Shown here one piece after another: positions 20,752 through 22,745 of a stretch of DNA of 64,000 nucleotides. Location of the stretch: the IMG/VR virus record IMGVR_UViG_2684622926_000002, positions 8,159-72,158 of that record. One strand, 5' to 3'. A program made the translations under genes and the position numbers. The first letter of the stretch is position 1; every line of letters begins with the position of its first letter. Source of the DNA: a virus (Duplodnaviria; Caudoviricetes). The notes under the pieces are model-generated. The model saw only the letters and a list, made by a program, of their open reading frames with translations. It was not told the DNA's origin and did not search any database.

Positions 20752-21036
20752 TTATCTATTATTACATATTAACTCAAAACTTTTTTTAGGAATAAACGAA
20801 AATTTACCAAGCAAAATTATTCTTCCTGTCATACCTATATCTATTGTAGGAATAGATTTTTTATACATTAAAATATCTAAAATTTTATAATTAACTTCAT
20901 TAATATTAAGATCATCTTTAAAAGTTGTAAAAATATCTCCAATATTTAAAACATCTCCTTCTATAAATCTTCCATTTACCCAAAATGAATTAATATCTAT
21001 TTCGCCATAGAATTCAACTTGAAATATATTTTTCAT
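20752..21036 (-). CDS. Putative immunity protein resembling the EF-Tu domain II beta-barrel
   Basis: VNGRFIEGDVLNIGD..ILMYKKSIPTIDIGMTGRIILLG versus EF-Tu [37 protein letters not shown] (eye alignment). Confidence 0.5.
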   Translation of the reverse strand: MKNIFQVEFYGEIDINSFWVNGRFIEGDVLNIGDIFTTFKDDLNINEVNYKILDILMYKKSIPTIDIGMTGRIILLGKFSFIPKKSFELICNNR

Positions 21037-21044
21037 AATATTAT

Positions 21045-21605
21045 TTATTTACATAATGCTTTTGTTCTTTTAACAAATTCATTTATTTCTGCATCAGACA
21101 TTGATCCTAATTGTTTAAATGTATTGGATAGATCCCCAATAGATACTTTAGTAGGAACATCATACCCCATTTTTTTAAGATAGCTGTTGCATCCTTTGCG
21201 GATATTTCAGCAGTTGCTAATTACCTTAAATCATTTGGTAACATATCTATTCCTACTTTATTTTCAAATGACGCTAAAACATTACCATCTAATATTTTAG
21301 ATGAATCTATAGCACCTTTATCAAATATTTGTACAACAGCCTCTCCATAATTAGAAGAATGATTAGCAAATATTGTTGCTACTCTTGGTTCTGTCATCAC
21401 AGGTGTTATACCTATTCTTTGAGTAGCATTACTTCCATTAAACCCTATAGGTGTACCTCTAAAAAATGGATCCAACCCCAGCGCGTCGACCATCCTATTA
21501 AAGTCATGAGTATACGCATTCGAGTTATTCCCAGCAAGTCCGATAGGTTTTTTGCTTATATTAAGTTACTAATTTACTATCGTAATATCGGAAACGATTG
21601 TGATA
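21045..21605 (-). pseudogene. Rhs remnant plus ART-like toxin tip with an internal stop
   Basis: MVDALGL junction; FFRGT..ITPVMTEPRVATIFA..SFENKVG resembles R..S/T..ExE ADP-ribosyltransferase motifs; frame resumes after the stop at 21221. Confidence 0.55.
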
Positions 21606-21615
21606 AATTATCCCT

Positions 21616-22287
21616 TTATAAAATTTCCTCTATTGAATTTCTAAATATTTCATTCTCCTTAATTTCATTAGGAAGTTTCTTAATAAACATATCAAGTTCA
21701 TCTTTTCCTAAAAACTTTTCAATATTAAATAAGAATAGAGGTAAATTAGATGATTCTAATGTATTGCTTAGCTTTACTAAATAATTATTTGATAAATATT
21801 TTAACGCTATATTTTTATCAATATTTAATACAAAAGAAAATATATATGGATATTCCGAACTATATTTAACTAAATATTCTAAATTATCTTTGGTATAATT
21901 AAGAGAATTATTATCTATAGAACTGATATACATTTTTAAATCATGTTTTTCCTGTTCAATTAATTTAACTCTATCAATTATATCTTCAATTTCTAAAATT
22001 TTATTTTCAAACAATATACATTCACCAACTTTGTGAGCTCCATCCATATAATCAAATTTAAAACCTTGTTTAAGTATTCCCTTTGGTGCATCTTCTGATA
22101 AAAAAAACACTTCATTAGCTATTGTTTTATATCCTTGATCTCTTGGTGAAATATCAAATTTAAAAGCAATACTCCATCCTTGTTTGCTTTCAGGTAAATA
22201 TATTTGCGTATATAAAAGTTTAGTTGAAGGCAAAAGCCTTTTTTCTCCGTCAAATATATTTTTATTCCAATTAATTAAACATTTCAT
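21616..22287 (-). CDS. Putative immunity protein; N-terminal half resembles EF-Tu domain III
   Basis: GWSIAFKF..FFLSEDAP..QGFKFDYMDGAHKVGECI versus EF-Tu DDGLRFAIREGGRTVGAGV; helical C-terminal half. Confidence 0.5.
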   Translation of the reverse strand: MKCLINWNKNIFDGEKRLLPSTKLLYTQIYLPESKQGWSIAFKFDISPRDQGYKTIANEVFFLSEDAPKGILKQGFKFDYMDGAHKVGECILFENKILEIEDIIDRVKLIEQEKHDLKMYISSIDNNSLNYTKDNLEYLVKYSSEYPYIFSFVLNIDKNIALKYLSNNYLVKLSNTLESSNLPLFLFNIEKFLGKDELDMFIKKLPNEIKENEIFRNSIEEIL

Positions 22288-22317
22288 AATTTCTATTTAT
22301 ATTTTACTCGATGAGAA

Positions 22318-22745
22318 TTAACACTTGTAACTTTGGTAGGTTTTTTTATTTAAATCATCAATTTCTATAGCTCTAGATTTTCCTATTCCATCCAAATCAT
22401 AATCAGCTATACATGCCTTTTTAGCTATATCATTATCTATTTCAAATCCTACTACACAAAATTTACTATCTCCTTCTAAATGGCCTAATTTATGACCAAA
22501 TTCTACAGCACCTTCATAACTTTCTGCAAACCATTTAGCCATCATTCCTCCACTATCTCCTCCCATGCGCCATCCATTTTCAAGAGTATCAAAATACTCA
22601 GCTCTAGTCATAGTTCTAAATAATTCCATCAACCCAAACATTACTATCATGCGTATACGCATACCAATTTGGGTTATTTCCAGCAAGTCCGATAGGGTCT
22701 TTGCTTATATAAATTCCTGAATTACTATCGTAATATCGGAAACGA
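22318..22745 (-). pseudogene. Rhs remnant plus putative ART-like toxin tip (FRTM..E..KWFAES..LDGIG)
   Basis: Junction at ~22640; MELFRTMTRAEY..KWFAESYEGAVEFG..DLDGIGKSRAIE. The activity is inference. Confidence 0.55.

Follow-up and report, generated by a model that had tools for sequence, protein, structure and literature searches.

Translation-factor barrels as the probable origin of two neighboring immunity proteins in a Gilliamella Rhs toxin array

Why two adjacent small genes in an array of broken Rhs toxin tips should resemble pieces of elongation factor EF-Tu, and what such proteins would do there, is the question raised by IMG/VR virus record IMGVR_UViG_2684622926_000002. The stretch analyzed, hereafter the window, covers 64,000 nucleotides of that record (positions 8,159 to 72,158; G000:C11:8318-72317 in host-genome numbering), and coordinates below are those of the window. 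The genome carrying it is 3.5 Mb in size with ~30% G+C and has an EF-Tu of its own of the gammaproteobacterial type; because an uncultured Gilliamella metagenome-assembled genome (MAG) holds DNA near-identical to the window, the host is a bee-gut Gilliamella, a genus in which large Rhs toxin arrays are already known (PMC5727410, PMC8125069). On the minus strand, at ~14-28 kb, lies a run of orphan Rhs tip/immunity cassettes, each laid out as a short Rhs core stub (NRFRYYDS..DPIGLAGNNPN..), then a toxin domain and then a short open reading frame (ORF) downstream. Two adjoining cassettes are considered here, tip2 (22318-22747) followed by imm2 (21616-22287) and tip1 (21045-21599) followed by imm1 (20752-21036). 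An earlier, sequence-only reading had proposed that the two small genes are EF-Tu-like immunity genes, and both are indeed intact minus-strand ORFs, of 94 amino acids (aa) for imm1 and 223 aa for imm2. The features concerned are as follows.

22318..22747, minus strand: tip2, an orphan Rhs tip with a stub (NRFRYYDS..DPIGLAGNNPN..) extending to ~22640 and the motif LFR.MT..E.

22000..22287, minus strand: N-domain of imm2 (residues 1-96), a predicted EF-Tu domain-III-type beta barrel (AlphaFold2, VIA and hhalign).

21616..21999, minus strand: C-domain of imm2 (residues ~100-223), all-helical and repeat-like, without a specific structural match.

21045..21599, minus strand: tip1, a broken orphan Rhs tip in which, on a three-frame reading, an NRFRYYDS.. 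stub is joined to a toxin domain.

20752..21036, minus strand: imm1, an intact ORF of 94 aa, the whole of which is a predicted domain-II-type barrel of translational GTPases.

The explanation favored here, which taken as a whole has a somewhat better than even chance of being right, is that immunity in these two cassettes is provided by recruited barrels acting through active-site occlusion. In this explanation, imm1 and imm2 would each be the cognate immunity protein of one toxin tip, the two tips being unrelated to one another and having decayed here while the immunity genes were kept intact, presumably against the same toxins fired by neighbors. Both proteins would be built on translational-GTPase beta-barrels, free-standing in imm1 and fused to a helical domain in imm2, and judging from their models they have probably evolved from translation-factor parts. 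As is common with pairs of this kind, the barrel would most likely bind the small toxin domain 1:1 and cover its catalytic cleft, in analogy to the beta-sheet lid that the immunity protein TriTu places on the Rhs toxin TreTu (PMC9825190); EF-Tu ancestry would then be the source of the binder and not its mode of action.

An immunity role is supported by position, co-inheritance and selection, to which the models add a predicted fold. Both genes lie in the Rhs immunity slot, directly downstream of a tip, and are co-inherited with that tip in unrelated genomes. The combination of tip2 and imm2 is found with an intact tip2 in four places, Gilliamella Lep-s35, Apibacter mensalis, a Flavobacteriaceae MAG and Flavobacterium sp. 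ALJ2 (L030, L031, L033, L034), in the last of which the toxin ends a complete Rhs protein of 1397 aa, and the pairing of tip1 with imm1 recurs in a metagenome contig (L050). imm2 is under purifying selection, with a ratio of nonsynonymous to synonymous substitution rates (dN/dS) of 0.18 against its Gilliamella and Apibacter orthologues (0.17 in the N-domain, 0.20 in the C-domain). Its family has 26 members, which are full-length in Apibacter and Flavobacterium and include the N-domain as a stand-alone protein of ~97 aa (P0021-23, P0026). The imm1 family is rare, with 7 relatives among 1.84 billion representatives; apart from one near-identical copy none was found in 48 other genomes at the level of the family Orbaceae, and none in 401 Flavobacteriales genomes or on plasmids.

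A stand-alone homologue of the imm2 N-domain, at 53% identity, is also present in the high-G+C actinobacterium Rothia aeria AP017895 (L035:6001-6270), where no toxin can be seen upstream of it, which suggests that an orphan immunity gene has spread across phyla.

The AlphaFold2 model of imm1 is all-beta, with a mean predicted local distance difference test score (pLDDT) of 93.1 and a predicted template modeling score (pTM) of 0.84 from an input of 8 sequences. Foldseek matched it to domain II of translational GTPases (E 5.4e-4 with TM 0.77; TM range 0.65-0.77), and such domains take nearly all of roughly the first 45 places, both there and in an unbiased VIA scan that covered 48,161 chains. 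Between 85 and 89 of the 94 residues superpose on this barrel, with VIA scores of Z 13.6 for SelB (root-mean-square deviation (rmsd) 2.0, 87 aligned), Z 12.9 for eRF3 and Z 11.1-11.8 for residues 209-301 of EF-Tu (best for residues 212-301, rmsd 2.8, 89 aligned), the highest being far above background. On its model, imm1 is closest to domain II of SelB and eRF3 and not to that of EF-Tu in particular. A barrel of the imm1 type is also seen at the C-terminus of a 280-aa protein (P0034), behind an extra N-terminal domain of ~200 aa, an arrangement that mirrors the barrel-plus-domain design of imm2.

For imm2, the model has a pLDDT of 89.7 from 22 sequences, and residues 1-96 superpose on the domain III barrel of EF-Tu (residues 304-392) with VIA Z 8.2, an rmsd of 2.5-2.9 A and 81-83 aligned residues. 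The unbiased scan placed bacterial EF-Tu domain III in positions 1-4, followed by domain III of GTPBP1, Hbs1, eRF3, aEF1A and CysN. The assignment of imm1 to domain II and of the N-terminal half of imm2 to domain III, which the sequence-only reading had made by eye, was therefore recovered by AlphaFold2, Foldseek and VIA, all of which give EF-Tu-type barrels; a Foldseek comparison with EF-Tu had been set beforehand as a check on the folds, and it returned EF-Tu-like barrels. The C-domain gave generic HEAT/ENTH/TOG-like matches only (Z <= 7.1). No solved immunity protein is among the structural matches listed for the two models, and the predicted closed barrels of imm1 and the imm2 N-domain are unlike the TriTu/Imm-My6CBD fold (PMC9825190); Pfam gave no Myosin-VI_CBD match.

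In direct sequence comparison, this resemblance does not rise above chance. Against the host's own EF-Tu, Smith-Waterman scores are at chance level for both imm1 (z = 0.07) and imm2 (z = 0.9; 500 shuffles each), searches of Pfam, NCBIfam and the PDB, by sequence and by profile, returned no EF-Tu family for either, and the imm1 family (8 members) had no Pfam or NCBIfam match at E <= 10. The registers of the alignments made by eye are recovered exactly by hhalign: imm1 18-80 pairs with EF-Tu 226-284 in domain II at P 0.016 only, with V.GR, MY.K (MFRK in EF-Tu) and LLG (LLRG) in register, and imm2 58-92 pairs with EF-Tu 355-389 at P 0.017, GFKF..DG..VGE corresponding to GLRF..EGGRTVGAG. The crossed controls, imm1 against domain III and the imm2 N-domain against domain II, were blank.

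For the domain III type, a bridge through intermediate sequences was found by running a tip2 profile against the 401 Flavobacteriales genomes. This gave one extra match, a weak one (E 9e-4), which is the C-terminal domain of another polymorphic toxin; it carries the motif LYRSVSP.EL and is homologous to tip2 (hhalign E 1.3e-6, 89 columns). Directly 3' of it lies a 96-aa gene whose product matches EF-Tu 316-393 in BLASTP (27% identity, E 1e-6). With this small protein (from genome G772) as the query, matches were obtained in 319 of the 401 genomes, mostly genuine EF-Tu of ~397 aa with a few short homologues, and in a second genome (G717) the same type of toxin is followed by a 94-aa homologue of it, so that the pairing of toxin and domain-III-like gene is present at two loci (L058 and L061). 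The profile of the small Flavobacteriales proteins matches EF-Tu at hhalign E 1.2e-12, and the imm2 N-domain matches the stand-alone domain III profile at E 4.3e-6 in local and 5e-5 in global, full-length alignment, where the FDGE.RLLP loop, which hardly varies within the imm2 family, is aligned to the GGRHTPF loop of EF-Tu. As homologous toxins carry homologous barrels and these bridge to EF-Tu, the immunity barrels would descend from EF-Tu domain III; on these profiles the resemblance reads as descent from EF-Tu-like proteins and not as convergence.

Two further settings of domain III homologues were noted in the Flavobacteriales. In one genome (G613, L060), an orphan gene for a domain-III-like immunity protein is located immediately upstream of an orphan stub with a true TreTu_C tip (PF24691 E 1.6e-12), which is followed by a separate small ORF that is TriTu-like by eye; the two immunity types would thus coexist in one array. 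In four genomes (L062-L065), a free-standing EF-Tu domain III homologue of 108-110 aa is located between metH and metF (assigned by eye); it is more EF-Tu-like, keeps the GGR.TP loop and has a housekeeping context without a toxin.

Small six-stranded barrels are common, and both proteins may have arrived at this shape independently of translation factors, in which case a domain II type next to a domain III type would be a coincidence. The lack of a direct sequence signal to EF-Tu speaks for such a generic resemblance, as does the adjacency of imm2 and imm1 being restricted to very close relatives (in Gilliamella Lep-s35, other cassettes come after imm2). It is difficult to reconcile with scans of 48,161 chains that top out with only the matching GTPase domain for each protein, with an imm1 score far above background, and with a bridge from the imm2 N-domain through stand-alone domain III to EF-Tu that is significant at each step, and is considered improbable. 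Three points nevertheless weigh against the favored explanation itself. The Z of 8.2 for the imm2 N-domain model is within the range reached by best matches of unrelated models, which also speaks for a generic resemblance; what carries the fold claim for this domain is that Foldseek, VIA and the profile bridge agree. The main contact with the toxin might be made by the helical part of imm2 and not by the barrel. For imm1, convergence or a very old split may be the case, as no sequence bridge to any GTPase domain II was found.

The two tips that these proteins would counteract are both broken. In tip1, a stop codon interrupts the frame at 21221-21223, the frame shifts at an A-run near 21170-21178, and the stub contains more frame breaks. 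In tip2, the frame of the stub differs from that of the toxin domain, which is ~105 aa long and otherwise open (ORF 22318-22686). The breaks of both tips are also present in two close relatives, G040 and the Gilliamella MAG, whereas a metagenome homologue of tip1 (L050:1-330), represented by its C-terminal part, is uninterrupted across both the stop and the A-run frameshift. The sequence-only reading had each immunity gene follow an ADP-ribosyltransferase (ART)-like tip, of which it can be kept that both follow a toxin tip and that tip2 is weakly TreTu-like. tip1 has no detectable relation to any ART family and fits no family; it has no intact relative in the window's own family. The term ART-like is unsupported for tip1 because its match in Atlas, a language-model look-up, is uninformative (0.91, few features in common) and hhalign connects it neither with tip2 or TreTu nor with the Flavobacteriales toxins.

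For tip2, Pfam gave no match, and the nearest named clusters in Atlas are TreTu_C (0.93) and Tox-ART-HYD1 (0.90). An R and an E six residues apart, the spacing seen in TreTu, are invariant in the tip2 family and its Flavobacteriales relatives. The motif is weakly aligned between tip2 and TreTu_C in hhalign, at E 0.15 directly, which is not significant, and at E 4.5e-4 via the Flavobacteriales toxins (L058/L061). The Pfam models TreTu_C (PF24691) and PF15633 do not match tip2 or its relatives at E <= 10, and the equivalents of TreTu H31 and S25 are not conserved in them. That tip2 is a TreTu-like ART is a lead from its sequence for which the chances appear evenly balanced.

Genuine TreTu_C (PF24691) Rhs tips are found in 6 of the 23 Gilliamella genomes searched, and the small gene behind them, which occupies the immunity slot, is TriTu-like by eye. 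At two (L041, L043) of the three TreTu_C loci in Gilliamella and a relative (L040, L041, L043), a gene that by eye is macro-domain-like comes after the TriTu-like gene, a hint that protection may have a second layer that is enzymatic.

The suggestion that had been made for this locus is one of decoys mimicking the docking surface of the toxin. Spelled out as target or cofactor mimicry, the toxins would dock on EF-Tu, either as their substrate, as TreTu does, or as their cofactor, as several CDI tRNases, Tse6 and Serratia Rhs2 do, and the immunity proteins, which would have begun as copies of the docked domain, would be high-affinity decoys on the EF-Tu-binding surface of the toxin. EF-Tu is known both as a toxin target and as a toxin cofactor. 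TreTu, a ~100-aa Rhs ADP-ribosyltransferase in which R6 and E12 are essential, modifies D21 of EF-Tu (PMC9825190), CdiA-CT NC101 binds EF-Tu domain 2 (PMC5737660; PMC9086364), Serratia Rhs2 needs EF-Tu (bioRxiv 10.1101/2025.10.28.685041), and many toxins that use EF-Tu are known (PMC5737660, PMC9071432, PMC9825190, bioRxiv 10.1101/2025.10.28.685041). In addition to this standing of EF-Tu as a toxin hub, mimicry would account for two unrelated toxin-immunity pairs both employing EF-Tu-family barrels, it is consistent with a domain III type that appears truly homologous to EF-Tu and with the TreTu motif and profile link of the tip2 family, and the loop of EF-Tu domain III with which the almost invariant loop of imm2 is in register is an exposed one.

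Several observations do not fit as well. TreTu attacks the G domain of EF-Tu (helix D, P-loop) and not domain III, and its immunity protein TriTu, made of a sheet and helices, is unrelated (PMC9825190). The TreTu_C model of Pfam misses tip2 and its Flavobacteriales relatives, and since Tre23, a related ART-HYD1 toxin, modifies 23S rRNA, the target of tip2 could be RNA. Identity to EF-Tu in the structural alignments is 11-20%, so that little of the EF-Tu surface is conserved, and imm1 is nearer to SelB and eRF3. As free-standing domain III homologues occur outside toxin loci, in the metH-metF context, a pool for chance recruitment also existed. Mimicry of the docking surface therefore stays conjectural, owing to the weak tip2-TreTu link, the attack of TreTu on the G domain, the lack of any ART relation in tip1 and the proximity of imm1 to SelB and eRF3, and is regarded as rather unlikely. 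Slightly less likely again is its specific form, in which tip1 and tip2 both dock on EF-Tu and each immunity protein is a matured copy of the docked domain (II for tip1, III for tip2) that has become a tight competitive binder.

Domains II and III are the tRNA-binding parts of EF-Tu, and this opens a further possibility, namely that the proteins do not bind the toxin but shield a translation component or stand in for it, for example by binding aminoacyl-tRNA or the ribosome through a retained tRNA-contact loop, and so protect at the target. The conservation of the R..P loop, the equivalent of the tRNA-contacting GGRHTPF loop, would fit such target shielding, and some Rhs ADP-ribosyltransferases are described as acting on tRNA or rRNA (PMC13617354; PMC8661411). 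However, across phyla each immunity family is tightly co-inherited, one to one, with a single family of toxins, a signature of direct, specific binding, and the known immunity proteins of this toxin class work by complex formation (PMC9825190), leaving target shielding highly improbable. By analogy with TriTu, plain active-site occlusion by a recruited barrel appears more likely than target mimicry.

In the surroundings of the two cassettes, the following features were recorded.

20695..20722, no strand assigned: terminator-like hairpin directly 3' of imm1, with a T-run on the coding strand.

22838..22862, no strand assigned: terminator-like hairpin belonging to the cassette that precedes tip2.

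28670..29395 (G000:C11:36987-37712), plus strand: decayed second copy of the C-terminal part of tip2 and of imm2, inverted, with at least 11 stop codons.

The two hairpins bracket tip2, imm2, tip1 and imm1 with none in between; a promoter scan was uninformative (13 found, 17.5 expected). The decayed inverted copy adjoins the phage-tail region. Just downstream of imm1 and ahead of the next tip stub, positions 20054-20680 are G+C-richer and without a consistent ORF, a segment that is also present in two other loci (L004, L029). The neighboring orphan tip (19464-19661, minus strand) is a truncated tuberculosis necrotizing toxin-like NADase (TNT) domain (Pfam E 1.6e-10) and is followed by a small zinc-ribbon-like ORF (19232-19453). 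Tips of whatever family, in the window at 14-28 kb and in L029-L034, nearly all end in Cys and then K, H or G right before the stop, as in ..VKCKK, ..KGCH, ..ALCK, ..KTCH and ..PGCG.

To our knowledge, the origins of polymorphic-toxin immunity proteins are largely unknown, most of them having no recognizable relatives. Here the predicted folds of two immunity families are those of translation-factor domains, and for one family the link to EF-Tu can be followed by sequence, which would give it a concrete origin. EF-Tu-like immunity proteins were not found described in the literature on EF-Tu-dependent toxins, TreTu, CDI (contact-dependent inhibition) and recent Rhs systems, in the 2012 polymorphic-toxin census or in full-text searches, which is not proof of absence. 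New here are a predicted domain III barrel that has diverged very far and carries a helical domain, an immunity protein of the domain II type whose toxin is unrelated, and the position of the two side by side. The idea is thereby raised that a fragment of a toxin's cellular partner can become its antidote, and if the proteins are decoys, EF-Tu fragments would be a general source from which immunity proteins have arisen repeatedly. The tip2 family, which crosses phyla (Gilliamella, Apibacter, Flavobacterium), is by its sequence a probable translation-targeting enzyme, and natural, intact toxin-immunity pairs are now in hand for experiments.

In comparing the locus to known systems, TreTu-TriTu of Salmonella Typhimurium (PF24691; PMC9825190) resembles the tip2 cassette in consisting of a ~100-aa Rhs C-terminal toxin with a small gene directly downstream, and TreTu agrees with tip2 in total length and in an R-x-M-[ST]-x-x-E motif near the N-terminus. 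The two differ in that the TreTu_C model misses tip2 and the profile link between them is weak, and TriTu consists of two helices and a flat sheet of five strands, unlike the predicted barrels of imm1 and the imm2 N-domain. With EF-Tu domains II and III (PF03144, PF03143), the predicted folds match over the whole domains and the turns V.GR..G and G.+F...G...G are in register; unlike EF-Tu, imm1 and imm2 have no GTPase domain, are free-standing or fused to a helical domain, fall under all Pfam thresholds and lie in toxin cassettes. The CDI tRNases (CdiA-CT NC101, EC869; PMC5737660, PMC9071432) provide a precedent for an antibacterial toxin docking on EF-Tu domain 2, but are BECR-fold RNases delivered by CdiA whose immunity protein CdiI is not EF-Tu-like and joins EF-Tu in a ternary complex.

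Single domain-II-like barrels of ~90 aa, similar to imm1, are known from archaea in PF0907 (PDB 4PGO/1XE1; Z 12.2) and Pbp11 (PDB 7ANU; Z 10.9), which differ from imm1 in being archaeal and not toxin-linked, and have no detectable sequence relation to it. Immunity through substrate mimicry is known from other proteins, with the colicin E5 immunity protein acting as a tRNA mimic and barstar as a further case. The colicin D immunity protein is likewise described as a tRNA mimic in the substrate site of its toxin (PMC9086364). The concept is the same in all of these, an immunity protein that fills the substrate site of the toxin by resembling the substrate; in the colicin D and E5 cases the likeness to RNA lies in charge and shape, with no homology between immunity protein and target, whereas a decoy at this locus would be a copy of a domain of the protein target.

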